The notes under the pieces: generated by a model | The model's database searches: none | Seen by the model: only the letters and a program-made list of their open reading frames with translations | What the model was told of the DNA's origin: nothing | Translations under genes and position numbers: made by a program | Shown: positions 5,686-60,508 of the stretch, piece by piece | Layout: the number at the start of each line of letters is the position of its first letter | Numbering within the stretch: position 1 is the stretch's first letter | Source: an uncultured Gammaproteobacteria bacterium | Lineage (GTDB): Bacteria; Patescibacteriota; Patescibacteriia; SG8-24 | Direction of reading: 5' to 3' | DNA: 64,000 nt | Assembly (NCBI GenBank): GCA_964486995.1 | Contig: CAZAOV010000007.1 | Location: 699-64,698 of the forward strand

Positions 5686-6501
5686 ATGTCAGCAAAAGGA
5701 CGTTTCACAACTTTCTTCCGCACGCTCGCCAAGAGCTGCTATGACATGGAATTCTATCGAGAAGTCCGAACCAGGCCGTGGTCTGATGCTTTCAAGTACG
5801 CCGCGGTCTTTTTCGTTCTGATTACGTTCGCCATCGTACTGTCGGCGGCACCGGGTTCGTTTATGTTTTTGTCCGACGCGAAGAGCGAAATCCGAGATAA
5901 TATGCCAGACGGCACAGCGTTCGAGATAAAAAATAACATCTTTTCGACCACTCTGGAGCCAGCCACTGAGTTTGGTGGCGATGAATTTATTTTGATTATC
6001 GACGATACAATTTCCGGAAAGGATTTTCCGAAAGCGTTTGAGGACCGTATCGGTATTTTTATCGGACGCGACGCGGTATTTACTCAAGAGCCCGATAATA
6101 CGCGCGAAATCATGACATTTGAGGATGCGCCTGAGTTCGAGTTGACCAAACAGCAGATGTTGCAGTGGCTCAGTCGGTATGGCGCGCCAGTAATTGTGTT
6201 GATGCTGTGGCTAGTATGGCTATTCAGTTATTTTTTCTCGTTGCTGAGTGCATTGGTATCCATATTATTTATGTCGGTGATTTCATTGCTGGCTGGTCGG
6301 GCCTGGAAAGTTAACCTGAACTATAAACAGTGGCTGGCGGTAGGGTTTCATGCGATTACGTTGCCAACCATTTTGGATTTTCTGTTCACTTCATTTGGGT
6401 TGGATGTGCCGTTCCTGATGCCGGTGGTATTCTTTATGTTCATTTTTGCGGTGCTGTCGGATGAGCGGGCGCGACCGGTCAAACCAGAACCCGCCAAGTA
6501 A
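5686..6501 (+). CDS. Hypothetical polytopic membrane protein (DUF1189-like architecture)
   Basis: 271 aa, 4-5 predicted TM helices. Start uncertain because there is no SD (alternative ATG ~5746). Confidence 0.45.
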   Translation: MSAKGRFTTFFRTLAKSCYDMEFYREVRTRPWSDAFKYAAVFFVLITFAIVLSAAPGSFMFLSDAKSEIRDNMPDGTAFEIKNNIFSTTLEPATEFGGDEFILIIDDTISGKDFPKAFEDRIGIFIGRDAVFTQEPDNTREIMTFEDAPEFELTKQQMLQWLSRYGAPVIVLMLWLVWLFSYFFSLLSALVSILFMSVISLLAGRAWKVNLNYKQWLAVGFHAITLPTILDFLFTSFGLDVPFLMPVVFFMFIFAVLSDERARPVKPEPAK

Positions 6502-6510
6502 AGGAGGTGC

Positions 6511-6600
6511 CATCACGAAAAACCGCCAGACTTGTTTTAAGGGAGCAGCCTCGCTGTTGTCTAAAACAAGTCTGGCGGTTTTTGCGCAAGCTCGTGATGG
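6511..6600. repeat. Long hairpin, also a bidirectional terminator; copy 1 of hairpin family 1 (core CAGACTTGTTTTAAGG)
   Basis: AAAAACCGCCAGACTTGTTTTAAGG...CTAAAACAAGTCTGGCGGTTTTTG with outer arms CCATCACGA/TCGTGATGG. The same core recurs at 33197..33262 and partly at ~35780. Confidence 0.6.
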
Positions 6601-6678
6601 GCGGACGCCTCAAAGCGCACATAAAAAAGAGCCGCGACATAGTCACGGCTCTTCGCGATGATCGACACGCCGGCCGGA

Positions 6679-6960
6679 TCAGACAGCCGAAGCGAACGGC
6701 CAGCGTATGCGCTTGCATCGACGGCGTTCTAGTGCCGCCTTCGCCCGGGTCAGCTGATCGGCGTTCGGACAGATGACGTGCACCTGCACCGGTTTTGGCG
6801 CGTCGCTGGCTCTGCTCGCACGGACGCTGATTTTTATGCCCCGCGGCATCGTCAGATCGACGTTGTCCTCGTCGGGATGACCGAACATTGCGGCGAGAGA
6901 GCGGATTCGCCCTGTCGCCTCCTCGCGGCTTTCACAAAGAACGTACAATTCGTATGCCAT
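6679..6960 (-). CDS. Hypothetical small protein (93 aa)
   Basis: ATG start (MAYELYV...) preceded by a strong SD AAAGGAGGAGAG. No recognisable domain. Confidence 0.45.
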   Translation of the reverse strand: MAYELYVLCESREEATGRIRSLAAMFGHPDEDNVDLTMPRGIKISVRASRASDAPKPVQVHVICPNADQLTRAKAALERRRCKRIRWPFASAV

Positions 6961-7139
6961 GTCTCTCCTCCTTTTTGCTAGACAGACATTGCACAATAGC
7001 ATAAGTTAACTTCGTTGTCAAGCCTTCTAAGCTTTAAATTAGCCAAAATTAGACTTATGTGGGCTGTTGACAGTTCAGGTAAATAAGGATAATGTATGCG
7101 ACTGGTTCTTTGACCTCGGGTGTTAGAGAGGGGAGTAAG

Positions 7140-9411: not shown

Positions 9412-9597
9412 ATTAACCATAAAGTTGAAAGCAGTGAAGAATAAGTCTTTAAATCTTTTAACCTTATAACCTCAATAATAATACTGCCCCGGCGGCCATG
9501 GCTGACGGCGAATCTTTAATCGCGATTCGCCATGAGCGATGGTTGTCCAAATTTCGTCGGGACGCTAGCGTATGGTCACTAGGCTGGCCATAAAGAT

Positions 9598-11405: not shown

Positions 11406-11614
11406 ATATTTAGGTAATTGACAAATAGCCTTAAATGGGCTATTTTTGGTTAGGTGTTAGCGCTTCCGATATGGGGCAAGCTGCACCGCGTCGCAAGAAA
11501 TCATTTGCTCACCGTACTTATCGGTACGGCTCGCTGCATGATTCCTTGCGCCACGGCACATCTTACCCCATCTCGAAACCGCTTCACGTACTCGGCAAGA
11601 GGTTTACATATTAA

Positions 11615-11688
11615 GCGGGCGTAGTTCAACGGATAGAACGGCGGTTACGGAACCGTTAACGGGGGTTCGATTCCGTCTCGGGCGCTTC
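11615..11688 (+). pseudogene. Degenerate tRNA-Arg copy (6-nt anticodon loop, unpaired 3' acceptor strand)
   Basis: Identical to the tRNA-Arg at 11837 except loop TACGGA (6 nt) and 3' end CCGTCTCGGGCG, which cannot pair with the 5' GCGGGCG. Confidence 0.5.
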
Positions 11689-11836
11689 CGATATGGGGCA
11701 AGCTGCACCGCGTCGCAAGAAATCATTTGCTCACCGTACTTATCGGTACGGCTCGCTGCATGATTCCTTGCGCCACGGCACATCTTACCCCATCTCGAAA
11801 CCGCTTCACGTACTCGGCAAGAGGTTTACATATTAA

Positions 11837-11911
11837 GCGGGCGTAGTTCAACGGATAGAACGGCGGTCTTCGGAACCGTTAATGGGGGTTCGATTCCCTC
11901 CGCCCGCACCA
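11837..11911 (+). tRNA. tRNA-Arg (anticodon TCG) with encoded CCA
   Basis: Manual cloverleaf: acceptor GCGGGCG/CGCCCGC, D-arm GTTC-AACGGATA-GAAC, anticodon stem GCGGT/ACCGT with loop CTTCGGA, T-arm GGGGG-TTCGATT-CCCTC, discriminator A, CCA; followed by terminator AAAAAACCAACCATTCGGTTGGTTTTTT. Confidence 0.85.
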
Positions 11912-12216: not shown

Positions 12217-12291
12217 GGGTCGGTAGCTCAACGGTAGAGCAAATGGCTCTTAACCATTAGGTTCAGGGTTCGAGTCCCTGTCGACCCACCA
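12217..12291 (+). tRNA. tRNA-Lys (anticodon CTT) with encoded CCA
   Basis: Acceptor GGGTCGG/TCGACCC, D-arm GCTC-AACGGTA-GAGC, anticodon stem AATGG/CCATT with loop CTCTTAA, T-arm CAGGG-TTCGAGT-CCCTG, CCA; followed by terminator GCCCCAGCCGAATAGGCTGGGGC-TTT. Confidence 0.85.
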
Positions 12292-12428
12292 GATATGGTG
12301 GCCCCAGCCGAATAGGCTGGGGCTTTCCGCTATTTAAGGGTCAACAGGGATGAGAAGGGCGGCGAGAGAATGCGTGCTGGTGAGCATTTGGTGCGTAGCT
12401 GCCCCAGTACCCGAGTCGGAGCGAGGGG

Positions 12429-19771: not shown

Positions 19772-22732
19772 ATGTTTGTTCACAGAAATAAAATTTCTGC
19801 ACGTTTCGCTCGTTCCGGCATTTCGGTAATCGAGGTGCTTTTGGCGATAGCGATTTTTGGGGTGTTGGCCGCAAGCCTGATGATTTTGGTATGGGAGCCT
19901 TTGGTGTCTTCGAGCAGTGCGGCTCAGCGCGTGCAGGCCGTATTGTTGGCCGAAGAGGGGTTAGACGCCGCACGCTCGATTCGTAATGCGGACTGGTTGG
20001 CGCTCATTGACGGCGATCACGGAATAGATATTACCGGTGGGACTTGGGTCTTTTCTGGTACCAGCGACACGGACGGAACTTACATTCGGGTGGTCACCGT
20101 TGAGCCGGTTAGCCGAGACGTCTCTGGAGACATAACCGACACGGGCGGCACGCTGGATGCGAGAACAAAAAAAGTGACTTCGACGGTCAGCTGGGATTCG
20201 CCGTTCGGTGGCGATAAGTCGTTGTCATTCTCTACTTTTTTCACTAACTGGAACGTCATTGATTGGACGCAGGAAACTGACACGGACTTTGCCGGCGGCA
20301 TCAATAACGGCACTATCGTTACCGGCTTCGGAGACGCTGCCTATATCGAACTAGGTGCCGGCGGAGGTTCTGGTACATGGGACGTTTGGACCAGCTCATC
20401 CGTCACCCACACCACAGATGGAGATTTTTCGGCCGGAACACCGACCGACGTTACCGTGACCGGTGACGGAATTGAATTGAGTTCCGGCGGAATCGGTTCA
20501 TGGTCGGATTACGGTCTCGGTCCGGTAAGCGGGTCGTTGTACGGCATCGACATGGTTAGTTCATCAGACGGTTGGGTGTGCGGAGCGGGAGGGGCAATGA
20601 TTTCTTGGGACGGCAGCAGTTGGTCTGGATCAGAAAGCGTGGCCGGAACTAACACATATGCCGTTGATATGGTGTCTTCGACCAATGGCCATGCCGCTGG
20701 CGAGTGGAGCCTGCTTTATTCTTACAACGGGTCTTCTTGGTCATACGAGGGTTTTGATGTCCTGCAGAATATTACGGCTATCGGCATGGTCGATGGCAGT
20801 GACGGCTGGGCGGGCAGCAGTGGCGGTCGCGTCTTGCGGTGGGACGGGGCAGATTGGAATTTCTTCACCGATATTGGCGCAGAAGAAGTCGGGGACATTT
20901 ATATGCTTAGCACCAGCGACGGTTGGTTGGTTGCGCAGAACGGGCGAATTGAACGGTGGGACGGCTCCTCTTGGTCCGCATTTACTTCACCTACCTCGTC
21001 CTATCTGCGGGCAATCGACATGATTGATGCCAATGACGGCTGGGTGGTGGGTGATTCAGGCACTATTATTCGTTGGAATGGTTCCAGCTGGTCATCAGTT
21101 TCGTCTCCGACTTCTGATGACCTTTATGGCATATCGGTCGTAGCGTCAGATGACGTGTGGGCAGTGGGCGAAAGCGGCCGCATAATCCACTGGGACGGCT
21201 CTAGTTGGTCGAGTGTTTCTTCACCGACCAGCGAAAATCTTTACGACATTGCCATGGTTTCAAATGCAGACGGCTGGGCCGTTGGAGCCAACGGGACCAT
21301 TTTACGATTCGAACTTTCGTACGCTTCACCGGGCATACTAGAATCATCCGTCATCAATAGCGGTAAAACCGGAACCAGCTGGAGCCAGGTTTCCTGGACC
21401 GAGTCTTTACCTGCCGGAACCGATGTTACGGTGGCGTTTCGTTCTGGTGATACGGCAACACCGGACGGTAGTTGGTCGTCTTGGGGTTCGGAGGTCACGA
21501 ATGAAACCGGCAGCGCCGTCACCTCGTCCAGCTCTCAATATCTGCAATACCGTGTCACCATGACCACCAGTTCAATCGACACTCCGCGACTGGAGGACAT
21601 TACGGTTACGTATGACGAAGTGACCAGTAGCGATTTGTACGGTGTTGGCGGCAGCGCGGTGGATGACGTGTGGACAGTGGGTGAGTCCGGAACCTTATTG
21701 AACTATGACGGTTCGTCCTGGTCCAGCTTCAGTTCGCCGACCGGAAACGACATAAATGCCGTGGACGTACTGGCGTTCAATGACGCTTGGGCGGCGGCGG
21801 ACAGTGAGCAGTTCTTGAATTGGGACGGTTCCGCCTGGACCATAGTCAGCGATATCGGCAGCGGAACACTGAACGATATTGACTTGATTACGTCTTCGTC
21901 CGGTTGGGCAGTCGGTTCGGGCGAGGAATTCTTTGAATATGATGGCTCGTCATGGTCCGAGCTGTTCGATTTGGGCGAAGATACGCCCCAAGCCGTGTTT
22001 ATGCTTTCCGCCGTCGAGGGCTGGGCAGCCGGATCAAGCGAAAAATTTTATCGGTATGATGGTTTGTCATGGGCCGATTTTTCTGATTTGGGCGGCGAAA
22101 CCATTTACGACATTTACATGATTAGTTCGTCCGAGGGCTGGGCAGTCGGTTCGGGCGGCAAGTTTTACCGCTGGAACGGAACCGCCTGGTTCGAGTATGT
22201 GGACGTCGGCGGGGCTACGCTATACGGAGTGATAATGATTTCTGCGGTCGAGGGCTGGGCAGTCGGTTCGGGCGGCGCCCTGTACGAATGGGACGGCAAC
22301 TCATGGTCGTCTGTCGTTTCCGGAGTGACTGAAGATCTATATGACGTGTCCATTGTTTCGACGTCGCCGACGATTGCCTGGGCGGTGGGTGCGAACGGAA
22401 CTCTATTGAGTTTAACTGCCGGAGGTTCAGGAACCAGCGGCACTTACGAATCCAGTATTCTGGATACGGACAGCACCGATTCAATTTGGGAAACCATGTA
22501 TTTCGATGTCGTGCTGCCCAACGATTCCACCGCTACTGTTGCCTTGCGTTCCGGCGATACGCCAACACCGGACGGTAGCTGGGCGTCATGGAGTTCAGAG
22601 ATTTCAGTCACCTCTGGCACAGCGGTTCCGGTTTCCGGCGCTCGGTACCTGCAGTACCGCGTTACTCTAGAGAAAAATACCAGCCCCGATTCCCCGGAAT
22701 TTCACGGCATCACCATTACCTATACGCAATGA
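19772..22732 (+). CDS. Giant pilin-like protein (986 aa): prepilin N-terminus, ~12 beta-propeller-like WDGSSW repeats, and a twice-repeated ~110 aa C-terminal module
   Basis: N-terminus RSG/ISVIEVLLAIAIFGVLAASLMIL. Repeated ...DGWAVG..G.I..WDGSSWS... units of ~50 aa. Duplicated module (L/F)RSGDT.TPDGSW.SW.....G......YLQYRV at aa ~520-640 and ~870-986. Overlaps the next gene (ATGA). Confidence 0.8.
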   Translation: MFVHRNKISARFARSGISVIEVLLAIAIFGVLAASLMILVWEPLVSSSSAAQRVQAVLLAEEGLDAARSIRNADWLALIDGDHGIDITGGTWVFSGTSDTDGTYIRVVTVEPVSRDVSGDITDTGGTLDARTKKVTSTVSWDSPFGGDKSLSFSTFFTNWNVIDWTQETDTDFAGGINNGTIVTGFGDAAYIELGAGGGSGTWDVWTSSSVTHTTDGDFSAGTPTDVTVTGDGIELSSGGIGSWSDYGLGPVSGSLYGIDMVSSSDGWVCGAGGAMISWDGSSWSGSESVAGTNTYAVDMVSSTNGHAAGEWSLLYSYNGSSWSYEGFDVLQNITAIGMVDGSDGWAGSSGGRVLRWDGADWNFFTDIGAEEVGDIYMLSTSDGWLVAQNGRIERWDGSSWSAFTSPTSSYLRAIDMIDANDGWVVGDSGTIIRWNGSSWSSVSSPTSDDLYGISVVASDDVWAVGESGRIIHWDGSSWSSVSSPTSENLYDIAMVSNADGWAVGANGTILRFELSYASPGILESSVINSGKTGTSWSQVSWTESLPAGTDVTVAFRSGDTATPDGSWSSWGSEVTNETGSAVTSSSSQYLQYRVTMTTSSIDTPRLEDITVTYDEVTSSDLYGVGGSAVDDVWTVGESGTLLNYDGSSWSSFSSPTGNDINAVDVLAFNDAWAAADSEQFLNWDGSAWTIVSDIGSGTLNDIDLITSSSGWAVGSGEEFFEYDGSSWSELFDLGEDTPQAVFMLSAVEGWAAGSSEKFYRYDGLSWADFSDLGGETIYDIYMISSSEGWAVGSGGKFYRWNGTAWFEYVDVGGATLYGVIMISAVEGWAVGSGGALYEWDGNSWSSVVSGVTEDLYDVSIVSTSPTIAWAVGANGTLLSLTAGGSGTSGTYESSILDTDSTDSIWETMYFDVVLPNDSTATVALRSGDTPTPDGSWASWSSEISVTSGTAVPVSGARYLQYRVTLEKNTSPDSPEFHGITITYTQ

Positions 22733-25700
22733 AGCGAGCCAAACAAAATAATAATCGCGGTATCGCCTTGCTGGAATTGATTATCTATCTGGGTCTGCTT
22801 GGCTTTGTACTTTCGGCAATGGTCATGTTTTCGGTCGAGTTTGCGGCCACCCACGCCAAGTCCGCGGCACTGGCCGAATCGGCGCGCAATACCAAGTTTG
22901 CAGTGACGAGAATCGCGTATGAGGTGCGTCGGGCCGAGTCCATCGACTACGACAACTCAACTCTCGATACCAGTCCGTCTGTCCTGACGCTTGAAACTTC
23001 CAATCCGTCCACCAATCCAACCGTTATTTCAGTGGTCGAAAATCAGCTGATGATGAGTCAGGGTGGGGGAGCGGATATTCCGCTCACGCCATCGCAAGTC
23101 GAGGTGGAGGATTTTACGATTATAAACGTGGCCGACACGACTCGCAGTCGGTCGATTCGGGTTGCGCTCACGTTGGGTATTGTCGAGTCGGGCAGCTTGG
23201 AAGAGTTTTCGGGAGTAACTTCCTACATGACTACGGTGCGGGTTTGGAAAGACGATGGCTATAACACCGAGGGCACACCACCGACTCCGACACCGACCTA
23301 TGGCCAGTCGGCATATCGCTTCTTTGCCAACGACGATTCCACTGATGTCGGCGCTCCGTTGGCGGCTCAAGATTCAGCCGCCGCACTTTCTTCCGATGGC
23401 AATCCGTTCCGTTTGCGTATGATGGTGGATGTTGATACCGCAACGGTGGCGACCAGCGCAGCCTCGTTCAAGCTGCAATTCGCGGAGAAGTCTGGCGCTT
23501 GCGATACCTATTTTGTTGGCGAGTCCTACGAAGACGTAACCGCGATTTCCGATATCGCCTATAACGACAACTCTCCCTCAGATGGCGTGGCGCTAAATGC
23601 CAACGCTAATGATCCGGTGCGAGCCGGCCGAACGTCCGTTGCGCAAACGTATGAGGAAGCCAATAATCTGACCAACTCGAATCAGATTTTGGCTGGTCAG
23701 ACCGGATTATGGGACTTTGCGCTAATTGACAACGACGGCACGGACGAAAAAGAATATTGTTTCCGTTTGGTGCACTCCAGCGATTCTCAGCTTAATGACT
23801 ATTCGGTCGTGCCGGAAATTTCCACGGCCGCTGGTTCCACCACCGATGTTTTCCGCGTCACCGAATATTACATTACCGCCGGAGAGTTTAGCGGGGACAC
23901 CTATGACCTTACGCTGGACCAGGCTTTGGCTTCCAACTATTTTACGATTATTCGCGGCAGCGACGGTAGCGGCACGGGCGGCGGCAATCGTGGCCCTGAT
24001 GAAAATTATGTTTCTTTGACCGCTGACCCGTTCGGAACGGGGGAACTGGTACCGTCTTCCGGTTCGGATGTACTGCAACTCACTCGCCATAATTCGGTTG
24101 ACGGTTGGCAGGGAGTGGTAACGGTAGCGGAGTGCCTAGGCAACTGTTCGACTTCCGGATTTGAATTACTGGACGTGCGTCGCGTGGTACATTCCGGCAC
24201 CTCTACCGGCGGCACAGAGACAGCAGGAGCCAGCTGGTCAGATATTGATCAAGTTATGCTGCTTGGCGGCTACAATGGCGCGGGCTGTGACAGTATCGAG
24301 ACCGATTCAGGCAGCCATCACAGCTGTCACGTTCGTCTTTGGCCGTCAGGCAGCAACCAAATATTTTGGACCAGAAATAGTTTGGGCGGTTTGATGACCG
24401 CAACTTCTACGGTACAGGTGCTGGAGTGGGGGAGCGACTGGACGGTGCAAAGACGCACGGTGACCGGAAGCTCCGGCGGCGACGGTGCCGATCAGTTGAC
24501 CGAGTATGATCGTACGGCCATCAGTTCGGTAAATCGTGACGCCACTTGGGTGTGGGGCACTGGGCATACGAGCGAAAGCGGAACTGGTGACAGCGCCGAA
24601 GCGTCGCTGATTACATTGGGTGACGGAGTTAACCTGAACTCGTCCGAATCTTGGGTGTCCGTCGGTCAAGAGGTCGATTGGGCAAACAAAGAATTCGAGG
24701 TGTATGCGCTGACTCATCCGAGCTTGATGGTTGATTACCGCTTCAAGCCGGACGGAAACGAGAGTGACCTGACCTATGATCAGGCGGTTAATTCGGCTAC
24801 GGCCGGCCTGCGGATGTCAGTGGCTTACAACGGGTCTGACGGTTCCGGCTCGCAGTACCCGCGGCCCATCTTCTCGACTCGGTATGCTTCCGATACATCT
24901 GTTCGTATGGAGCGCCGGCGTGTCGGCGCAGAATTCCCAGCTTGGATTCAGGGTATAGACTTTTCCAATATTATGGCTGGAGGTGGTCCGCCACCGAGTG
25001 CCACGTTGACTCAGTCGGCCTATCGTATATTCGATAACGACGATTCTACCGATGTGGGTGCACCCTTGGCAGCGCAAGATACAGCCGCCACCCTAACCGC
25101 AAATGAAAGTGAGTTTAGGCTTCGCTATTTGCTGGGTATCGACACGTTCGGGCTATCGATGTCAGGGGAGAGCCTTAAACTTCAGTACGCCACCAAGTCG
25201 GGTACGTGCGATACCGCATTTGCGGATGAAAGTTATGCTGACGTGACTGGCGCCACAGCCATTGCCTTCGCCGATAACTCGCCGTCCGATGGTGTCGCGC
25301 TGACCGAAAACGCGAACGACCCGGTGAGCGGTGGCCGAACAACGATCGCTCAAACATATGAAGAGAATAATAATCACACTAACACGACGGCTATCGCCAA
25401 CGGTGAGGCCGGGTTGTGGGATTTCGCCCTGGTTGACAACGACGGATTAAACGCCGCCGACTATTGTCTGCGTGTGGTGCGTTCTGACGGCAGTCTGCTC
25501 GACACCTATTCGGTTATCCCAGAAGTCTCAACGGTCTCCGGATGCGGAGTGATTTTTAGCGACGATTTCGAAGACGGCGATGCTTCTGACTGGGTACATA
25601 CTTGGGATAGCGGTGTCGATTGGAACGTGGTTGATGTCGGCGGAAACAATGTCTATGAAAACACCAGCTCAACCTACTCGCAGACCCAAGCCCCTTCATT

Positions 25701-28395
25701 TGGCGATGATGATTACGTTTATACGGGGCAGTTTACGATCAGCAATTATGGTATCCACGGATTTATTTTCCGTTATCAGGATGACAGTAATTTTTGGCGT
25801 CTAGTGTTTGAGTTTGGTCAGGTTCTGATTCGCGGTCAGGTGGGTGGGTCCTGGACAAATGCGGCCGGGCAGTCGGTAATCAATTGGTCTCCGACCGTCG
25901 GCACGACGTATAACATCAAGGTCAAAGCTGAAGGCAGTCAACTGGACGGAAAGTGGTGGGAAGACGGGACCGCCGAACCGGGTTCGTGGATGATTTCTGC
26001 CAATGACAGTCAGATATTGACTGGCTATGCGGGCGTGAGCAATCGTGACGGCACGCAGTTCGATAGTCTGTCCGTCACTACCTGCCTGACCGATCCGGTG
26101 ACTGGGTCGGTCACCGTAATTGACCCGAACGGCAATGATTCACTTATTGCTGGTTCGAACTATGAAATCCTGTGGAGCTCGTCGGACACTTCTGGCAATG
26201 TCGATATTGAATATTCGACCGACAATTTCGTTGCCGACATTAATTCGATTGCCAACAGCACGGCAGATGACGGAAGCTACTTTTGGACCGTTCCAAGCCT
26301 GGACAGTTCAACGGTGCGCGTGCGCATCAGCGACTCGGCCGATGCTGGCGTGACCGACACAAGCGACGCGGACTTCGAGATTTCCATGCCGCCGAGCGTC
26401 ACCGTAACCGACCCGAACGGCGGCGAGTCGCTCACTTCCGGTGACAGTTTTAATATCACCTGGATATCCATTAATTCCTCCGGATTCGTAGATATCGAGT
26501 ATTCAACCGACAATTTTGTTACCGATATAAATACGATAGTTGCCGGAACAGCCGATGACGGAATCCATGCCTGGAACGTGCCTGCTCTGGACAGTTCCAC
26601 CGTGCGCGTGCGCGTAACCGATGCGTTCTACGCCGGAATTGCAGATACGAGCGACGCGGACTTCAGCATCGCCACGCCGAGCACTGTCACGGTGACCGAC
26701 CCGAACGGCGGCGAGTCGCTCACTTCCGGTGACAGCTTTAATACCACCTGGACCTCCAACAACACCTCGGGCACGGTTGATATCGAATACTCCACCGACA
26801 ACTTTGTGTCCGATATCAATTCGATAGTTGTCGGAACCCTCGATGACGGTCTTTATGGCTGGACCGTTCCGAGTTTGGACAGCTCGACCGTACGCGTACG
26901 CGTTACCGACTCGGCCGATCCCGGCGTGACCGACACCAGCGACGCGGACTTCAGCATCGCCACGCCGAGCACTGTCACCGTGACCGACCCGAACGGCGGC
27001 GAGTCGTTAAACTCACAAGATTCATTCGACGTTACCTGGACCTCCAACAACACCTCGGGCACGGTTGATATCGAATACTCCACCGACAACTTTGTGTCCG
27101 ATATCAATTCGATAGTTGTCGGAACCCTCGATGACGGTCTTTATGGCTGGACCGTTCCGAGTTTGGACAGCTCGACCGTACGCGTACGCGTTACCGACTC
27201 GGCCGATCCCGGCGTGACCGACACCAGCGACGCGGACTTCAGCATCTCTACACAACCTACGTTCCGGGTAACCGAATACTACGTCACCAACAGTCAATTC
27301 AATCAGCAATCATACACCCTAACGCTCGACCAGGACTTAGAATCAAATTATTTTGTTATCGTCCGCGGCAGTGACGGTGACGGCAGCGGCAATGGCCATC
27401 GTGGTCCGGACGAGAACTACGCGGCATTGGCGGCTGACCCGTTTGGTACCGGTGATTTGAGCGATTCCGGTGCGTCAAACCAGATTGATCTTACCAGGCG
27501 GGGTGACACAGATGGCTGGCAGGGGGTAGTCACCGTAGTTGAATGCTTGGGCGACTGCGACTCGTCTGGCTTCGAACTGATTGGAGTCGAAGAGGTTACA
27601 CATTCTGGCAGTAGTACCGGCGGACAAGATACGTCCTCAGTTTCCTGGACCGACATCAATCAAATCATGCTGGTCGGCGGATTTTATGGCGCTGGCTGCA
27701 ACACCGATGAAAGCGACCATGTAGATCATGTCAGTTGCTTCGCCAAGATTTGGCCGGGCGGAACCAATGAAATTAATTGGTCCAGAGATGTCGGCGGCAA
27801 TAGTTCCCTGAGCACGGCCACCAGCACGGTCATGGTCATGGAGTGGGGGAGCGAATGGAACGTCCAGCGAGTTGATGTTGTCGGCAATAACGGCGGCAAC
27901 GGCGCGGACAGCACCGGCGAATACGACACGGCCAGCATCTCACCGGTGGCTCGGGTCAACACCTGGGTTTGGGGAACCGGTCACGTGGACGATGACGGTA
28001 TCGGCGATTCGGCCGAGGGGTCATTGGTTACGCTGGGCAACGGCGTGAACCAAAACGCCACCGAGTCGCAAGTAGCCGTAGGCAGTGAATACGGTGACGA
28101 CAAGGACTATGTGGTATATGCGCTAACGCACCCAGGCCTAGCGGTAGATTATTTCTTCAAGACCGACGGTCAAAGAGGCGATTTAACCAATGACGCGTCG
28201 GTTGATTCGGCGCCGGCCGGCAGTCGTATGGCGTTGGCCTATAACGGCTGTAACGGCACGGGACATGCTTATCCGAGGCCGATATTCTCGGCGCGATATT
28301 TATCGGACACGTTTATCCGCATGGAGCGGCTTCGGTCCGGTCAGGCATTTCCAGCTTGGATTCAGGGCATCGACTTTAGCGAGATAAAACATTAG
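22729..28395 (+). CDS. Giant pilin-like protein (~1888 aa): prepilin N-terminus; domains A-B, then A', a LamG/ConA-like domain, 4 tandem ~96 aa Ig-like repeats, and B'
   Basis: Start MKRAKQNNNRG/IALLELIIYLGLLGFV (class III signal). ORF track begins further upstream at 22588 inside the previous gene. Internal duplication of a ~190 aa domain (YRFFANDDSTDVGAPLAAQD... x2) and a ~370 aa domain (FRVTEYY...AWIQGIDFS x2). WRLVFEFGQVLIRG region consistent with a LamG-like fold. Confidence 0.8.
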   Translation: MKRAKQNNNRGIALLELIIYLGLLGFVLSAMVMFSVEFAATHAKSAALAESARNTKFAVTRIAYEVRRAESIDYDNSTLDTSPSVLTLETSNPSTNPTVISVVENQLMMSQGGGADIPLTPSQVEVEDFTIINVADTTRSRSIRVALTLGIVESGSLEEFSGVTSYMTTVRVWKDDGYNTEGTPPTPTPTYGQSAYRFFANDDSTDVGAPLAAQDSAAALSSDGNPFRLRMMVDVDTATVATSAASFKLQFAEKSGACDTYFVGESYEDVTAISDIAYNDNSPSDGVALNANANDPVRAGRTSVAQTYEEANNLTNSNQILAGQTGLWDFALIDNDGTDEKEYCFRLVHSSDSQLNDYSVVPEISTAAGSTTDVFRVTEYYITAGEFSGDTYDLTLDQALASNYFTIIRGSDGSGTGGGNRGPDENYVSLTADPFGTGELVPSSGSDVLQLTRHNSVDGWQGVVTVAECLGNCSTSGFELLDVRRVVHSGTSTGGTETAGASWSDIDQVMLLGGYNGAGCDSIETDSGSHHSCHVRLWPSGSNQIFWTRNSLGGLMTATSTVQVLEWGSDWTVQRRTVTGSSGGDGADQLTEYDRTAISSVNRDATWVWGTGHTSESGTGDSAEASLITLGDGVNLNSSESWVSVGQEVDWANKEFEVYALTHPSLMVDYRFKPDGNESDLTYDQAVNSATAGLRMSVAYNGSDGSGSQYPRPIFSTRYASDTSVRMERRRVGAEFPAWIQGIDFSNIMAGGGPPPSATLTQSAYRIFDNDDSTDVGAPLAAQDTAATLTANESEFRLRYLLGIDTFGLSMSGESLKLQYATKSGTCDTAFADESYADVTGATAIAFADNSPSDGVALTENANDPVSGGRTTIAQTYEENNNHTNTTAIANGEAGLWDFALVDNDGLNAADYCLRVVRSDGSLLDTYSVIPEVSTVSGCGVIFSDDFEDGDASDWVHTWDSGVDWNVVDVGGNNVYENTSSTYSQTQAPSFGDDDYVYTGQFTISNYGIHGFIFRYQDDSNFWRLVFEFGQVLIRGQVGGSWTNAAGQSVINWSPTVGTTYNIKVKAEGSQLDGKWWEDGTAEPGSWMISANDSQILTGYAGVSNRDGTQFDSLSVTTCLTDPVTGSVTVIDPNGNDSLIAGSNYEILWSSSDTSGNVDIEYSTDNFVADINSIANSTADDGSYFWTVPSLDSSTVRVRISDSADAGVTDTSDADFEISMPPSVTVTDPNGGESLTSGDSFNITWISINSSGFVDIEYSTDNFVTDINTIVAGTADDGIHAWNVPALDSSTVRVRVTDAFYAGIADTSDADFSIATPSTVTVTDPNGGESLTSGDSFNTTWTSNNTSGTVDIEYSTDNFVSDINSIVVGTLDDGLYGWTVPSLDSSTVRVRVTDSADPGVTDTSDADFSIATPSTVTVTDPNGGESLNSQDSFDVTWTSNNTSGTVDIEYSTDNFVSDINSIVVGTLDDGLYGWTVPSLDSSTVRVRVTDSADPGVTDTSDADFSISTQPTFRVTEYYVTNSQFNQQSYTLTLDQDLESNYFVIVRGSDGDGSGNGHRGPDENYAALAADPFGTGDLSDSGASNQIDLTRRGDTDGWQGVVTVVECLGDCDSSGFELIGVEEVTHSGSSTGGQDTSSVSWTDINQIMLVGGFYGAGCNTDESDHVDHVSCFAKIWPGGTNEINWSRDVGGNSSLSTATSTVMVMEWGSEWNVQRVDVVGNNGGNGADSTGEYDTASISPVARVNTWVWGTGHVDDDGIGDSAEGSLVTLGNGVNQNATESQVAVGSEYGDDKDYVVYALTHPGLAVDYFFKTDGQRGDLTNDASVDSAPAGSRMALAYNGCNGTGHAYPRPIFSARYLSDTFIRMERLRSGQAFPAWIQGIDFSEIKH
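26746..27240 (+). repeat. Near-identical ~288 bp tandem repeat inside the giant pilin (Ig-like repeats 3 and 4), ~210 bp of perfect nucleotide identity
   Basis: acctggacctccaacaacacctcgggcacggttgatatcgaatactccaccgac...gacttcagcatc occurs twice, 288 bp apart. Repeats 1-2 (26390..26690) are more diverged. Confidence 0.8.
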
Positions 28396-31809: not shown

Positions 31810-32400
31810 ATGAAGCGCAATAACAAAGGTTTTACCCTAGTCGAGCTCCTAATCGTCATCGGCATCATCGGTTTTCTGGCCGCAGCCATCTTGGTGGCGG
31901 TCGACCCGGTCAAGCGTATCCAGGACTCACGCAACTCCCAGCGCTGGTCAGAGGTCAACTCAATCCTGAACGCGGTGCTGAAGAAGCAGGTTGATGATCG
32001 GGCTCTGTATAACGGCGACTCAGCGGCACCCATCATCACCAGTGCCGACTATGCTCAGGTCATTGTCGAGGATGCAACCGATATAGTTTGTAATGTCGAG
32101 AGTACTCGACCCGGTTGCGATACAGCTTTGGATGTAAGCGCGGCGGACGCCGACTGCGTGGCGCAGCTTTTCGAAAATACTTCTCCGGGCACAGAACATC
32201 TTAATCCGACCTACTTGGCTGAAATGCCAACCGATCCCGGTGATGCCACCTGTCTGGATAGCGGAGACTGCACAGCGTTTGGTGACATTGTCATTGGTGA
32301 TTCGAATAGCGGTTATTATATCAAGCGAAGCACCGGCAACCGAATCGAGATTGGCGCATGTCAGCCGGAGCAGGGCGCTACCATCAGCGTCAAGCGATAG
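31810..32400 (+). CDS. pilA: Type IV major pilin (PilA-like), copy 1
   Basis: MKRNNKG/FTLVELLIVIGIIGFLAAAILVAV class III signal; 196 aa with 4 Cys in the C-terminal D-region; followed by terminator ATCCCGCTCCGTCTGAGCGGGAT-T5. Confidence 0.85.
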   Translation: MKRNNKGFTLVELLIVIGIIGFLAAAILVAVDPVKRIQDSRNSQRWSEVNSILNAVLKKQVDDRALYNGDSAAPIITSADYAQVIVEDATDIVCNVESTRPGCDTALDVSAADADCVAQLFENTSPGTEHLNPTYLAEMPTDPGDATCLDSGDCTAFGDIVIGDSNSGYYIKRSTGNRIEIGACQPEQGATISVKR

Positions 32401-32531: not shown

Positions 32532-33137
32532 ATGAAGCGCAATAACAAAGGTTTTACCCTAGTCGAGCTCCTAATCGTCATCGGCATCATCGGTTTTCTG
32601 GCCGCAGCCATCTTGGTGGCGGTCGACCCGGTCAAGCGTATCCAGGACTCACGCAACTCCCAGCGCTGGTCAGAGGTCAACTCAATCCTGAACGCGGTGC
32701 TGAAGAAGCAGGTTGATGATCGGGCTCTGTATAATGGTGATACCGATGTCGCACCTGGCGATGGAGCCCAAATCATTACTCACGCCTCTAATGTGCAAGT
32801 CATCGTTTCGGACGTGACAGGTATAAGCTGTGACGCACCAGCAAATCGACCAGGCTGCAATCAGACAATGGATACCACGGCGGGAAGGAATTGCGTTGCT
32901 AAACTCTTTGATCCGGACACGGCCGATCAAGATGATGAGCATTTGAATCCGAACTATATGGCCGAGATGCCGCTCGATCCGGCCGAAAATGCCTGCGCCA
33001 GCGGCTGTACAACTCTTGGTAACTTAGCTATCGGAGATACCAACAGCGGCTACTACATTCACCGTACCACCGGCAACCGAATCGAGATTGGCGCCTGTCA
33101 GCCGGAGCAGTCGGCAACCATATCCGTGAAGCGCTAA
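32532..33137 (+). CDS. pilA: Type IV major pilin (PilA-like), copy 2: 5' 203 bp identical to copy 1, conserved 3' block, divergent middle
   Basis: Nucleotides 32532..32734 identical to 31810..32012. Shared 3' accggcaaccgaatcgagattggcgcNtgtcagccggagcag. Central ~120 codons homologous but highly diverged. Terminator CCCCGCCCTCACTGGGCGGGG-T4 at 33163..33188. Confidence 0.85.
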   Translation: MKRNNKGFTLVELLIVIGIIGFLAAAILVAVDPVKRIQDSRNSQRWSEVNSILNAVLKKQVDDRALYNGDTDVAPGDGAQIITHASNVQVIVSDVTGISCDAPANRPGCNQTMDTTAGRNCVAKLFDPDTADQDDEHLNPNYMAEMPLDPAENACASGCTTLGNLAIGDTNSGYYIHRTTGNRIEIGACQPEQSATISVKR

Positions 33138-33196
33138 GGCTGAACATCAAGCGGTAAACAAACCCCGCCCTCACTGGGCGGGGTTTTGTCTCGTTT

Positions 33197-33262
33197 AAAA
33201 ACTGTCAGACTTGTTTTAAGGCGGACGCGGAGCCGTCCCTTAAAACAAGTCTGACAGTTTTT
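33197..33262. repeat. Hairpin family 1, copy 2 (AAAACTGTCAGACTTGTTTTAAGGCGGAC ... GTCCCTTAAAACAAGTCTGACAGTTTTT)
   Basis: ~27 bp stem sharing the core CAGACTTGTTTTAAGG with the 6511..6600 hairpin. Confidence 0.6.
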
Positions 33263-33287: not shown

Positions 33288-33548
33288 TTATTCCTCCCCC
33301 CTCAAGTCATCGCGCTCTTCCTGCAGTTGATTCAACCAAAATTCGTATTGTATGCCGACCTGATCTTGTCGCGCACGCAGTTCTTCAAATTCTTTGCGCA
33401 GCTGGACTTGTTCATCCAAAATCAGCCATGACCATCTCGCCACGCCGATTGAAATTGTTATGCTTATAACGGCGACTACTATCGCAATCATCGCAGAGTT
33501 AGAAAAACTTACTCGGTATTCATCATTATTTTTGTCGAATGGCCACAT
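33288..33548 (-). CDS. Small membrane-anchored coiled-coil protein (FtsB/DivIC-like architecture)
   Basis: One TM (IAIVVAVISITISIGVA) followed by a predicted coiled coil (LRKEFEELRARQDQ...). Identification by architecture only. Confidence 0.3.
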   Translation of the reverse strand: MWPFDKNNDEYRVSFSNSAMIAIVVAVISITISIGVARWSWLILDEQVQLRKEFEELRARQDQVGIQYEFWLNQLQEERDDLRGEE

Positions 33549-35212: not shown

Positions 35213-35707
35213 TTAAGCGTATGATTCTAGACATTCATCGATTTCTCTGCGCAGTTCAGGGGAATCAAGTCTTGTGTCTAGCACCGCCTCTTTGATTCGC
35301 CAGTCGCGTTGAATCTGCGAGTGGCAATACAGCAATATCATGTCGATAACGTCTTGCCGTCGAATGGTGGGTGAGCGGGCGATGATTTGTCGCAGTGTTT
35401 CTTGTTTTAGTACATGGCCGGTTCGCCGCAGATGCGTCTGGTGGCTGAGCATTTCGGAGAGCGCGAATAGTTCACGATAGCTGAAATATTCATTTTTCAT
35501 TCGCCGCTTCAGTTCGGTCAGCGACATATGGTGTTGTTCGACCAACGCCAGATACGCGATTGCCAAATTGCTAATTATTGGCAGAAACAGCCGAATCATT
35601 CGGTTCGGCCAAGAGCGAACATGTGGAGGTGAATTTTTCGGCGGAATAAGCGGACGGACTTGGTTGACGTCCAGTTTGTCCTTGTCGGATAGCGGTTGAA
35701 TGTACAA
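35213..35707 (-). CDS. Hypothetical protein
   Basis: 164 aa ORF, no recognisable domain. Confidence 0.35.
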   Translation of the reverse strand: MYIQPLSDKDKLDVNQVRPLIPPKNSPPHVRSWPNRMIRLFLPIISNLAIAYLALVEQHHMSLTELKRRMKNEYFSYRELFALSEMLSHQTHLRRTGHVLKQETLRQIIARSPTIRRQDVIDMILLYCHSQIQRDWRIKEAVLDTRLDSPELRREIDECLESYA

Positions 35708-35852
35708 GTAATCCTCCTTGAAAGAACACCGACCATACTAGCGGAATTTTAATTTGCAATCAAGGGGTATTTAAGATGAAAAACTGTCAGACTTGTGAAA
35801 TAACAATCCAACCAAAAAGCCGAGCGGGCAAACTCGGCTATTTTCAGCTCAA

Positions 35853-46456: not shown

Positions 46457-46513
46457 GGAAATTAAAAAGACCTTCTGATGGGGGTCTTTTTTTTGTTTGG
46501 TTGTGTTTGTTAG

Positions 46514-46554
46514 CACTGCCTGTCTGTACTTGAGAAAGTACAGACAGGCAGTGC
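46514..46554. repeat. Hairpin family 2, copy 1: perfect 18 bp stem GCACTGCCTGTCTGTACT-TGAGAA-AGTACAGACAGGCAGTGC
   Basis: Shares the core GCCTGTCT(G/A)TACTT with the 60428..60471 hairpin and, in degenerate form, with 53451..53485. Confidence 0.6.
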
Positions 46555-46637
46555 GAAACTTGTTGTTTTATTCCGAAGACGTTAGTTGTCAAGGTTAAAT
46601 AATAAAAATACACCAGCATTACGCTAGTGTTTTTTTG

Positions 46638-52491: not shown

Positions 52492-52512
52492 GTGATAGTA
52501 TAGTTTTTTGGG

Positions 52513-52583
52513 TGCCGAAGTGTGGAGGTATAGAAGTGTAGTAGGACGGTCACTTAGGGTGGGCGACCTACTACACTTCTATA
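52513..52583. repeat. Very long hairpin (24 bp stem GTGGAGGTATAGAAGTGTAGTAGG / CCTACTACACTTCTATACTTCCAC, 18 nt loop) downstream of leuS
   Basis: Read directly; one G-U position in the stem. Lies between leuS and the 52612 gene. Confidence 0.6.
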
Positions 52584-52611
52584 CTTCCACGCATCTACAC
52601 TAGATAAATAT

Positions 52612-53536: not shown

Positions 53537-55087
53537 ATGTGGGAGTGGCTGCTCGAAAAATTGGGGCAGCTAGCGCAGTCTCGTTCGCGGACGTTCTTGG
53601 TGTGGTTGGTGGCTTTTTTGGCGGGCGTGGCGGTGCATGCTTTTTATGAACGTCCGATGGGCGGCGTCGCGGTTATGACGGCGGTCGTTGTCGGTGCGGC
53701 GGTCTTTAGTTTGATTGCCCGTCTAGATAGGCGGGTAGTTTTAATTTGTACAGCTATAGCTTTGGCGGCGATAGGTTGTTGGCGCTACGACACGGTTTGG
53801 CGTTCTTCAGCCTATGCGACTCCGCCGCCGACAGTAGTCGGCGAGCATTTTGAAGGAATAATAATCGGTTACGTGCGCGAGCGGGAACGGAATACCCTGC
53901 TTACAGTTCAAACTGAATTTGGTTTAGCACGGTTGTATGTACGCACGCCCCTTACATATAAATATGGCGATCAAATTCGTTGGGGGTGTCGTCCGAGGCT
54001 GGTTTCTGCGGATGACGATGGCTGGCATGATCGGTTGCTGCTGGATGGGGTGCGGTGGACTTGCAGTGTTTATGATAGCCCGGTGCTGATTAAGACCCCC
54101 CTCTCCCAGGGGGTAAGGCCGGGGTGGGAGGACTCAGATTCAAGCGCGAACCCCAATACCATAAGGAGTAACGGGTTAAAAGACGTGATTTACCGATTGA
54201 AACGCGGGGTAGTCGCTTCGGTCCAGCGCATTCTCCCCGAACCAGAAGCGTCATTCTTGCTCGGCCTGCTCATCGGCGTTAAAGACGGTCTGCCCGAAGA
54301 GTTGACCGAGTCATTCCGCAATACCGGCACTACACATATCCTCGCGGTGTCCGGCTATAACGTGACTCAACTCATCAACGTCGGCGTGCTCCTGCTGGCG
54401 TTGATTCTGGTACCGCGCCGGAAATCCGCCGCTGTCATGGCGGTCGCGGTAATAATATTCGCCTGTGTGGTCGGTGGCGACGCTTCGGTGATTCGTGCCG
54501 CCGTCATGGGGTGTGTCGGCATTCTCGCCACGTTGTACCGGCGACGCTACAGTGGGGCGCGCGCTCTACTCGCCGCCGCCGCTTTGATGCTAGCGGTGAA
54601 TCCGCTCGTGCTGAAACATGACGTCGGATTTCAGCTGTCGTTCGTGGCGGTGTGGGGTCTGCATGCTTTGGCGCCGGGTCTACTTGGCTTGTTTCCGTCC
54701 CGTTGGCGCAACGTGGCGGTACGTATCTTGTGCGAAACCGGCTCGGCTACGCTCGCCACCGCACCAGTCATATTGTATTCGTTCGGTCGATTGCCTGCGG
54801 TTGGCTTGCTCGCCAACCTGCTGATACTGCCTCTCATCCCCTGGGCCATGCTGTTCGGTGCGCTGGCCGCAACCATCGGTTTGGTCAGCGTGTCGTTAGC
54901 TTTGGTGCCCGCGCTAATCGCGGCGTGGATTATGCTTGCGGTGGAGTTTGTCGCCATTTCGCTTGCGCGGCACGTTCCGCTCGCACTCGAAGTTCAGGTC
55001 GGGGCGGTCACGGTGGGGTTGTTGTATGTCTGGCTGATAATACTGGCGTTCGCTTTAGCGCGACGGGGATATGAAAAAAAGTCGTAA
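53537..55087 (+). CDS. comEC: ComEC/Rec2 DNA-uptake channel, membrane (DUF4131 plus competence) domains
   Basis: Polytopic membrane protein with THILAVSGYNV (the ComEC AISGLHV-type motif). Confidence 0.8.
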   Translation: MWEWLLEKLGQLAQSRSRTFLVWLVAFLAGVAVHAFYERPMGGVAVMTAVVVGAAVFSLIARLDRRVVLICTAIALAAIGCWRYDTVWRSSAYATPPPTVVGEHFEGIIIGYVRERERNTLLTVQTEFGLARLYVRTPLTYKYGDQIRWGCRPRLVSADDDGWHDRLLLDGVRWTCSVYDSPVLIKTPLSQGVRPGWEDSDSSANPNTIRSNGLKDVIYRLKRGVVASVQRILPEPEASFLLGLLIGVKDGLPEELTESFRNTGTTHILAVSGYNVTQLINVGVLLLALILVPRRKSAAVMAVAVIIFACVVGGDASVIRAAVMGCVGILATLYRRRYSGARALLAAAALMLAVNPLVLKHDVGFQLSFVAVWGLHALAPGLLGLFPSRWRNVAVRILCETGSATLATAPVILYSFGRLPAVGLLANLLILPLIPWAMLFGALAATIGLVSVSLALVPALIAAWIMLAVEFVAISLARHVPLALEVQVGAVTVGLLYVWLIILAFALARRGYEKKS

Positions 55088-56006
55088 AGGCAAAGGTTCA
55101 AGGGGGCAGGGGCTTTCGCTGTGTTTACGTTCGGTGTTTAGGCTTAGGCCTCTGCTGATCGGAGCGGTGTTTTTGTCGATGGTGTTTTTACCGGCGACTT
55201 GGGCCTGGCCGGAGACGCATGGTGCGGATTCCACTCTGCATTTTTTCGCCGTCGGTCAGGGCGATTCTTCGCTGGTGCAATGCGGGCGTACGCAGGCGCT
55301 GATCGATGGCGGACCGAATCGCGCGGTAATGCGGAAACTCGGGCGCTCCATGCCGTTTACCGATCGCCGTATCGAGTATGTCATTCTTTCGCATCCGGAC
55401 AACGATCATATTTTCGGACTGTTCGAAGTGTTGGAGCGCTATGAAATCGGGCATTTAATCATGTCCGAGTTTGCGGTCGAGCATGAAGTCGGCCGACAGT
55501 TGATGGACCTGGCTCAGGGACGCGGTACCGAGGTGTTGCTCGTAGAAACCGGCGACACTATTCAACTCGGGCAGTGCGGTGAATTCGAGGTGCTGTGGCC
55601 GGACCGCAACAGCGAGCATCTGGCGCTCAACGGCCGTGGTTATGTTAATGATTTGTCCCTGGTGCTGGAGTTTCATGCCAACGACGATCGACCGCTTGCC
55701 CTGTTTACCGGCGACATAAACGCCGAGGTCGAGGAGACGCTAGTCGCCGACTGCGCACTGCAGGAAGTGCAGATTCTAAAAATACCGCACCACGGCAGTT
55801 CGCATTCTTCTCATTATCGGTTTCTCCGAACGCTCAATCCAGAACATGCCGTGATTCAGGTCGGTGAAAACAATTATGGCCAGCCATCCAAGACCGTCTT
55901 GTTCCGTCTTGAGAAGATTGGCGCACAAGTCAGCCGCAACGACACAGACGGAGATATAGTATTTTCTGTTCAGTCTGACGGTTCGTTTGCGCTTATTTCG
56001 AATTGA
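55071..56006 (+). CDS. comEC: ComEC C-terminal metallo-beta-lactamase domain, encoded as a separate ORF that overlaps the upstream ORF in a different frame
   Basis: FFAVGQGDSSLV...HPDNDHIFGL...KIPHHGSSHS MBL motifs; 17-nt overlap with 53537..55087. Confidence 0.75.
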   Translation: MKKSRKGKGSRGQGLSLCLRSVFRLRPLLIGAVFLSMVFLPATWAWPETHGADSTLHFFAVGQGDSSLVQCGRTQALIDGGPNRAVMRKLGRSMPFTDRRIEYVILSHPDNDHIFGLFEVLERYEIGHLIMSEFAVEHEVGRQLMDLAQGRGTEVLLVETGDTIQLGQCGEFEVLWPDRNSEHLALNGRGYVNDLSLVLEFHANDDRPLALFTGDINAEVEETLVADCALQEVQILKIPHHGSSHSSHYRFLRTLNPEHAVIQVGENNYGQPSKTVLFRLEKIGAQVSRNDTDGDIVFSVQSDGSFALISN

Positions 56007-59937: not shown

Positions 59938-60308
59938 CTTCAGGCGTACAGGGTTATGGTTCCGGGATAGAGTCAAAATTATAACCCTTTTTATGGAGCG
60001 GCACTGACAATAGAATTGTGATCCCCTACTCACAATGATATACTCCAAATGCCCCTCGCAGCGGAAAAGTTTTGGGACAAATTTTTGGCTAGGGAACCTT
60101 TATTCTCTTATCCTGTGGGGTAGGGGAGCGGGTTCCAGCGGTCGAGCCGATTCGGCGGCCGAAGTGCGGAGTGCAAGCTCTGCGCCCGAGGCTGCCGAGG
60201 CGGCAAACAGTCACCCCAACGGGTGCTGTACGGCCCGACTGGGTAATAGCCAAAACTTGCCTGCTCGTGGGGCAACCAAAAACGCCGGCATTCGCTGGCG
60301 TTTTTGCA

Positions 60309-60382: not shown

Positions 60383-60427
60383 GCTTAGCAGTGATTAAAC
60401 ACTTTCAGCCTAAATAAATCAAGGTGG

Positions 60428-60471
60428 TTTTTTGCCTGTCTATACTTTTCCAAGTATAGACAGGCAAAAAA
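60428..60471. repeat. Hairpin family 2, copy 2: perfect 20 bp stem TTTTTTGCCTGTCTATACTT-TTCC-AAGTATAGACAGGCAAAAAA
   Basis: Shares the core with 46514..46554; lies between tRNA-Pro and the rpmB terminator. Confidence 0.6.
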
Positions 60472-60508
60472 CCGCCCTAGCTAGCGGCGGTTTTTGTTGA
60501 TTCATTCC

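Follow-up and report, generated by a model that had tools for sequence, protein, structure and literature searches.

A low-copy 66-bp palindromic repeat in terminator position between convergent genes of a Patescibacteria genome

Bacterial MITEs with terminal inverted repeats include, for example, the Correia/NEMIS, RUP and ERIC elements, and attC sites are defined by R''/R' core sites (RYYYAAC and GTTRRRY), extrahelical bases and a nearby integron integrase. For REP elements, we took as criteria that every repeat unit is itself an imperfect palindrome of 20-40 bp and that tens to hundreds of extragenic copies occur per genome; a cognate RAYT (Y1/HUH) gene, as a rule with the repeats on either side of it, is also expected. 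A further criterion is an unpaired GTAG or CGTC tag at one end of the palindromic unit (PMC3733652), and REPINs show a pattern of doublets with variable spacers together with singlet remnants (PMC3116915). REP and REPIN elements can terminate transcription and stabilise mRNA, with experimental support in E. coli (bioRxiv 10.64898/2026.03.23.713779). Flanks of A-tract and T-tract are the signature of bidirectional terminators, and DNA uptake signals of ~9-11 nt usually number at least 1,000 per genome and fall inside genes as well (PMC1852404). No report linking RAYT or REPIN with Patescibacteria was found in the literature searched.

The window analysed here, that is, the whole 64-kb stretch of DNA, contains a family of long palindromes (family 1) made up of two 66-nt palindromes and one half-copy ("2.5 copies"). 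It is a small dispersed intergenic palindrome of a known kind in terminator position, and it lies outside REP and REPIN as these are defined. We hold with about even confidence that family 1 is a recently gained, low-copy, MITE/REPIN-like repeat which terminates transcription intrinsically in both directions and stabilises 3' ends. Few repeats of this sort are on record for the phylum, to which it adds a small palindromic repeat/terminator family. The window is a contig of a Patescibacteria (CPR) MAG. Among its other genes are those for the type IV pilus, ComEC, gyrA, RNase Y and HU; the nearest other matches to its ProRS are Patescibacteria proteins of at most 85% identity.

Two palindromes and a half-site with a common arm

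The initial annotation had reported two long hairpins whose arms share a motif. Both are present, with perfect arms of 22 and 25 bp, and both exceeded chance in comparisons with shuffled sequences and in folding. Copy 1 is a 66-nt palindrome at 6518..6583 on the plus strand, with arms at 6518-6539 and 6562-6583. By sequence reading and by a repeat finder, these arms are 22 nt long, 100% complementary and separated by 22 nt. The left arm reaches 6542 (AAAAACCGCCAGACTTGTTTTAAGG), the right arm at 6562-6583 is TAAAACAAGTCTGGCGGTTTTT, and the centre forms a short GC-rich stem-loop of its own. The interval 6511-6600 first assigned to this hairpin was too wide for the 66-nt unit, as it takes in an outer inverted repeat, although the hairpin itself is real. 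In the extended hairpin (6510..6600, plus strand), the flanks also pair in the fold through an 8-bp inverted repeat, CCATCACG (6510-6517) and CGTGATGG (6593-6600), which is set off from the right arm by a 9-nt bulge (6584-6592).

Copy 2 is likewise a 66-nt palindrome and lies at 33197..33262 on the minus strand. Its arms (33197-33221 and 33238-33262) consist of AAAAACTGTCAGACTTGTTTTAAGG and the exact complement; they are 25 nt long, 100% complementary and separated by 16 nt. Outer inverted-repeat flanks of the copy-1 kind are missing from copy 2. The hairpin loops and outer flanks had been noted to differ; the outer 8-bp inverted repeat is present in copy 1 alone, and the 16-nt centres are of the same length but unrelated in sequence.

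The common arm of family 1 reads AAAAAC[C/T]G[C/T]CAGACTTGTTTTA(AGG). The best match between the copies was obtained with copy 1 in plus and copy 2 in minus orientation, as a 29-nt run, CGAAAAAC..AAGGGA, with 2 mismatches. Both copies have a unit length of exactly 66 nt and a core-to-core distance of 35 nt. Between them, 23/25 positions of the left arm and 20/25 of the right arm are identical, but only 4-7/16 of the centre, depending on orientation. The right arm of hairpin 1 is without the complement of AAGG, having GTCT where hairpin 2 has CCTT. As the arms are alike but the centres unlike, the arms are constrained or recently homogenised and the centre is not; the unrelated centres are also contrary to a simple copy-and-paste of a 66-nt unit.

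Two arm differences between the copies (C>T at positions 7 and 9; CCGCC vs CTGTC) are both mirrored in the partner arm, so that each copy stays perfectly paired. When these mirrored differences were subjected to a covariation test, 117/500 shuffles attained the observed value, the formal test being powerless with n=2 sequences. The perfect symmetry can be explained in three ways: by selection for pairing, by intrastrand template switching between the arms or, for the outermost 9 nt, by descent from older terminator stems with a shorter core inserted in the loop. The symmetric arm changes could accordingly stem from template switching and not from selection on RNA structure. An origin of the outermost 9 nt in pre-existing stems is weakened because the half-site, which is described below, has the outer part in common with copy 2.

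A scan of the window located the 16-mer core CAGACTTGTTTTAAGG exactly at 6527(+), 33206(+) and 33238(-), and with 3 mismatches at 6559(-). Shuffled sequences gave a mean of 0.33 matches, and 4 matches were attained in 0/100 shuffles. The outer motif AAAACYGYCAGACTTGT occurs 5 times, in the four arms and in the half-site at 35780, against an expectation of 0.44, and 5 occurrences were likewise attained in 0/100 shuffles. The hairpins fold at -57 and -68 kcal/mol in their windows (z = -8.4 to -10), with 0/200 shuffles as stable; over both strands the energies range from -50 to -68 kcal/mol, and copy 1 folds at -56.8 kcal/mol (z = -9.6). When the whole window was folded as ~6,400 sliding segments of 90 nt, hairpin 1 ranked third and hairpin 2 sixth. 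The arms have a GC content of 32-40%. A chance origin of family 1 is excluded by the shuffle counts for CAGACTTGTTTTAAGG and AAAACYGYCAGACTTGT together with the fold shuffles. No more diverged family-1 copies were found by fuzzy matching or short-word blastn in the window or in ~72 kb of relatives' contigs. The 10-mer CGCCAGACTT of the copy-1 arm is also found at 23488, 48137 and 50980, inside coding regions, where the flanks have no further similarity.

Gene 3' ends and the orthologous spacers of relatives

The palindromes had been described as dispersed in intergenic terminator positions, and both full copies indeed lie between convergent genes, 16 and 25 nt past stop codons and in the same orientation relative to the gene they follow. 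Copy 1 follows a DUF1189 gene (5686..6501, plus strand; PF06691, E = 1e-31; the database protein starts at Met21 and has 251 aa). It starts 16 nt past the TAA stop and is the sole terminator-like structure downstream of this gene. The 107-aa gene convergent to DUF1189 (6679-7002, minus strand) has its own ordinary terminator (6626..6654, minus strand), which is conserved in the relative L016. Copy 2 lies 25 nt past the stop of an 86-aa membrane-like conserved gene (33288..33548, minus strand; orthologues called in L013, L018, L019 and L022) and is the first hairpin with a T-run downstream of that gene. It adjoins an ordinary bidirectional pilin terminator, AAACCCCGCCCtcactGGGCGGGGTTTT (33163..33190, plus strand), which is of good quality, so that termination there does not need copy 2. 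The pilin genes of this region are tandem paralogues (31810-32400 and 32532-33137) with identical N-terminal and C-terminal parts, and L013 and L022 have one pilin gene here.

In their common orientation, both copies are preceded by A5 and followed by T5. Other terminators of the window are also of the form AAAAA-stem-TTTTT, some with AAAAACCGCC stems. Each copy thus has what defines an intrinsic bidirectional terminator, namely a stable hairpin with a U-tract and an opposite A-tract, located 16 or 25 nt after the stop. That the hairpins are longer and more conserved than ordinary terminators was borne out, as the ordinary terminators of this genome have stems of 8-13 bp. When transcribed, family 1 would form a 25-30-bp hairpin flanked by A5 and U5, and the folded RNA would serve as a bidirectional factor-independent terminator and as a 3'-end protecting stem for the preceding gene. 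Against these proposed activities, the stems are much longer and more AT-rich than those of typical intrinsic terminators, and copy 2 is redundant with its neighbour terminator.

Syntenic contigs of relatives were reached via ProRS, DUF1189 and a 164-aa protein encoded next to the half-site. In L013/L015 (ProRS 85% identical) and L022 (75%), the copy-2 spacer holds a single ordinary bidirectional terminator and nothing more, which indicates that copy 2 is an addition in the window's lineage. Synteny around the copy-1 spacer is conserved in L016 (DUF1189 75% identical) and L017, and the minus-strand terminator beside copy 1 is almost identical between the window and L016. Where the window has the copy-1 segment, L016 and L017 have an unrelated GTAG-type doublet, and in L016 an ordinary terminator stands before this doublet. 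Family 1 is therefore absent from both of the compared spacers (that of copy 2 in L013/L015 and L022, that of copy 1 in L016 and L017), which is the presence/absence pattern of a MITE and is as expected of a recently gained repeat. Neither family 1 nor the GTAG family was found in the 20 kb of L013. The gene order gyrA-DUF1189-sORF-DAGK-(L32)-nusB-rnc is conserved in L016 and L017, and we therefore dropped the idea that a GC-rich island (6.6-8.3 kb) is bounded by copy 1.

Family 1 is also absent from the public collections that were searched. The 21-mer AAAACNGNCAGACTTGTTTTA had 6 single matches in 185,579 GTDB species-representative genomes and the same number in JGI metagenomes, which is no more than chance would give. 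The matching taxa are unrelated, and a partner arm was found in no case. No family-1 hairpin copies were detected in the species-representative genomes, the JGI metagenomes or IMG/VR (0 pattern matches), and BLAST against phages and plasmids gave nothing relevant. Rfam gave no match at gathering score, the sub-threshold matches being to generic hairpins, e.g. miRNA precursors.

Taken as a low-copy, lineage-specific intergenic palindrome of 66 bp, with 25-bp inverted arms around a 16-nt variable centre, family 1 was probably acquired in this Patescibacteria lineage when it was copied into permissive spacers at the 3' ends of genes. Its spread would have been MITE- or REPIN-like, by a trans-acting or recombinational route.

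The alternative that survives best, which we consider unlikely though credible, is that the copies are plain host terminators without any mobile family. They would be unusually long and bidirectional, and would share sequence through rare ectopic duplication or gene conversion, or through insertion of a CAGACTTGTTTTAAGG... core in AAAAAC..GTTTTT terminator loops. Position, orientation and the A5/T5 flanks all suit a terminator, and the outer stem of copy 1, AAAAACCGCC/GGCGGTTTTT, is the stem of window terminators at 57607 and 60467-60496. In addition, CACGAAAAA(A/C)CGCCAG is also an arm of an ordinary L017 terminator, a likeness that alone is not significant, and there are very few copies in 64 kb and none in the public collections scanned. 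Three sites in 30 kb with near-identity over 18-29 nt, however, need a copying mechanism anyway, and copy 2 is superfluous beside an ordinary terminator. The half-site has the outer part AAAAACTGTC in common with copy 2, yet it lies in a promoter-proximal, non-terminator place, which argues that the whole arm was copied as a unit at least once more.

The half-site and the adjacent 164-aa protein gene

A half-copy had been noted at ~35780. It is 18 nt long and consists of a single arm, AAAAACTGTCAGACTTGT, at 35779..35796 on the plus strand, identical to the arm variant of copy 2; compared with hairpin 2 in minus orientation, the match extends to 19 nt. The half-site has no partner arm and no fold of its own (z = -0.2 and -2.0 vs shuffles). 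It is flanked by the HU terminator on one side and, on the other, by the promoter of the 164-aa protein gene (window 35213-35707, minus strand). This promoter reads TTGATT-17-TAGTAT, and on the minus strand the half-site ends 15 nt before its -35 hexamer. We interpret the half-site as a probable truncated, non-functional remnant of a third family-1 copy.

The 164-aa protein family has 18 representatives among 1.84 billion cluster representatives, and its gene always lies between HU and proS. The AF2 model is confident (pLDDT 92.9) and all-alpha. Searches of Pfam, PHROG and NCBIfam assigned the protein to no family, and the PDB gave nothing below E = 0.1 by sequence or below E = 1 by fold. In the 85% relative (L013), proS and HU are directly adjacent, and this prompted the idea that the half-site marks the edge of an inserted gene. 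We rejected this idea because L018-L021 encode homologues of the 164-aa protein at the same HU/proS position; the gene is thus ancestral, with a loss in the L013 lineage.

The constancy of the arms could also reflect protein binding, a proposal to which we give little credence. A regulator, an architectural protein or a recombinase would then bind two inverted sites of 13-25 bp a fixed distance apart, with the half-site regulating the 164-aa gene. Such a role is consistent with arms far better conserved than the centre, with a core-to-core spacing of strictly 35 nt and with the location of the half-site at about -50 to -68 of a good promoter. The full copies, however, lie at convergent 3' ends, away from promoters, and the adjacent 164-aa protein has no DNA-binding or recombinase match. 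Moreover, the 164-aa gene is ancestral at the locus while relatives carry different repeats upstream of it, and the motif is entirely absent from relatives with the same genes. The suggestion in the initial annotation of a conserved protein- or RNA-binding site gained no positive evidence.

GTAG-tagged doublets and comparison with known systems

The initial annotation had also suggested a REP- or MITE-like mobile element, and this stood in part. In its favour, the hairpins are absent from the relatives' orthologous spacers, their perfect arms of 22-25 bp have the form of MITE terminal inverted repeats, and two doublets with one singlet reproduce the REPIN pattern. The REP assignment did not stand. 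The arms begin with (C)GAAAAAC and end with AAGG(GA), with no GTAG or CGTC tag at either end. The lone arm at 35779-35796 folds no better than shuffles, the family-1 arm being palindromic solely in the outer AAAAC/GTTTT. The 64-kb contig contains 2.5 copies. With respect to MITEs, no clear target-site duplication was seen: there is none at copy 1, and the direct repeat at copy 2, GTCTC(G)TTT, is imperfect and offset by 5 nt on one side. Nor is there a shared interior, as the centres are only 4-7/16 identical, and there is no IS in the window and no match in public collections.

An association with transposase or RAYT-like genes had been proposed as a check, and no transposase or RAYT gene was found in the 64-kb window. 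The otherwise unassigned ORFs of the window contain no transposase, integrase, RAYT or Y1/HUH domain. The small number of visible copies (2.5 in the 64-kb window), the lack of an evident target-site duplication and the lack of a mobilising enzyme in the window all count against a MITE/REPIN-like repeat, which would presumably have been mobilised in trans. An attC site was rejected, as the ends are GAAAAAC and GTTTTTG/GTTTTTC, the stems are perfect and unbulged, and the window is without an integrase.

A genuinely REP-like family is represented by the doublets of the relatives and not by family 1. The unit of this GTAG family, GTAGCGGCAGGGCTTGCCCCTGC, consists of a GTAG tag followed by a palindrome with a 6-bp stem, is arranged in inverted doublets and is unrelated to family 1; it fits the published definitions of GTAG-tagged REP (PMC3733652) and of the REPIN-type dimer (PMC3116915). 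Three doublets occur in 6.6 kb of L016 (482-561, 1442-1540 and 6292-6391), and GTAG units are present in L017 (6863-6931) and L018 (1038-1100 and 3952-end), which belong to the same MAG (GCA_043804985.1). The only one in the window is a decayed doublet at 61512-61585. Homology of the family-1 arm to the GTAG arm was considered on the basis of a shared CAG..CTTG, ~10/23 positions with one gap, aligned by eye, and was rejected as not convincing.

Each of the three family-1 sites corresponds to a GTAG site in L016, L017 or L018, the sites being the spacers DUF1189/sORF, 86-aa gene/pilin and HU/164-aa gene. The probability of this overlap was estimated as P ~0.02-0.03, given ~17 orthologous spacers compared and 5-6 with GTAG elements. 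It rises to P ~0.18 if only ~8 spacers are permissive, and as significance is then lost, the overlap of landing sites is a lead only. In an improbable scenario, the CPR clade hosts REPIN-like replicators, and family 1 would be a later family that succeeded them by homing to resident REP/terminator hairpins or by taking their place. If this were true, palindromic replicators would turn over at fixed 'landing pads' in ultra-small genomes.

We think it very unlikely that family 1 is itself a true REPIN, whose REP doublets would be moved by a RAYT (Y1/HUH) transposase with its gene elsewhere in the genome. The inverted doublet, variable spacer and singlet remnant recall the published pattern (PMC3116915), and the GTAG-tagged REP doublets in the same spacers of relatives indicate that the clade does, or did, support REP-type elements. 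The single arm, however, is neither tagged with GTAG/CGTC nor a palindromic unit, a RAYT gene is missing from the window, and the copy density is far below that of typical REPs. The least probable alternative, a pair of DNA uptake sequences co-opted into terminators in the Neisseria/Pasteurellaceae style, is close to refuted and was rejected on k-mer counts and density: although ComEC (53537-56006) and pilus genes are in the window and uptake sequences often form terminator hairpins (PMC1852404), the 5 arm copies in 64 kb all lie in three sites with none inside genes, and arm k-mers are near expectation outside these sites, barring a weak excess of CGCCAGACTT (3 vs 0.15 expected).

Several other hairpins and repeats were recorded in the window. 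A second palindrome family of the same style (family 2), at 46510-46557 and 60423-60476, has arms TGCCTGTCT[G/A]TACTT with one mirrored G:C/A:T difference; its 4-nt loop differs between the copies, and the outer flanks are unrelated but complementary. One copy of family 2 is found after the GDH terminator; the other, which overlaps a AAAAAACCGCC terminator, immediately precedes tRNA-Pro. An imperfect hairpin at 52512-52600, with 42-nt arms (81% complementary), lies just upstream of a gene at 52612 and contains CTATACTT as does family 2; it is the most stable 90-nt fold of the window (-58 kcal/mol). Between pilT and tRNA-Arg there is a 222-bp tandem duplication (11460-11681 and 11682-11903; 200/222 identical), with a long imperfect hairpin in each copy. 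The second copy contains tRNA-Arg(TCG), and the first a tRNA-like remnant that is not called by ARAGORN or Rfam; at the corresponding place L016 has a GTAG doublet. The RNase III gene is preceded in the window (9496-9542), L016 (4294-4342) and L017 (10611-10653) by a conserved hairpin, CCATGGCTGACGGCGAATC / GATTCGCCATGAGCGATGG, which may be an rnc leader or autoregulatory stem. GC-rich structured segments next to tRNA-Pro and tRNA-Lys (60141-60230 and 12271-12360; -56 and -52 kcal/mol per 90 nt) had no Rfam match. Within the ORF at 22588-28395 (1,935 aa), 288-bp in-frame tandem repeats in at least 4 copies occupy 26122-27229.

In related ultra-small genomes, a few permissive spacers are occupied time and again by long palindromes that differ, GTAG REP doublets in some lineages and families 1 and 2 in the window. 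Because the same spacers hold different palindromes in related genomes, this suggests that hairpin elements at gene 3' ends turn over rapidly in streamlined CPR genomes. The compared spacers are concrete loci at which to ask whether such palindromes are selfish elements or recruited terminators and mRNA stabilisers.

Among described systems, the uptake-sequence pairs of Neisseria and Pasteurellaceae resemble family 1 in having a conserved motif on both arms of a terminator hairpin in a host with competence genes. Family 1 differs from them in a density that is orders of magnitude lower, in having no intragenic copies and in a much longer motif. REPINs and GTAG REP doublets, like family 1, are inverted doublets that form long hairpins with a less conserved spacer, leave singlet remnants, lie downstream of genes and often between convergent ORFs, and have species-specific sequences; a possible terminator or stabiliser role is also common to REPINs and family 1. 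In contrast, REPINs are GC-rich, dense and built of tagged palindromic units, whereas family 1 has AT-rich, untagged arms that are not palindromic, at very low density in the 64-kb window.

MITEs are likewise short non-coding elements with ~25-bp inverted repeats that are intergenic and lineage-specific and may have terminator activity. At 66 bp, family 1 is at the very small end of their size range, and it is unlike them in lacking a demonstrable target-site duplication, a shared interior and a known parent IS. Bidirectional intrinsic terminators match family 1 in their hairpins flanked by A-tract and T-tract, located between convergent genes and tens of nt past the stop. They usually have a GC-rich stem of 5-14 bp, whereas the stems of family 1 are 25-30 bp long with 32-40% GC, and family 1 stands apart from them in that the same sequence recurs at unrelated loci.
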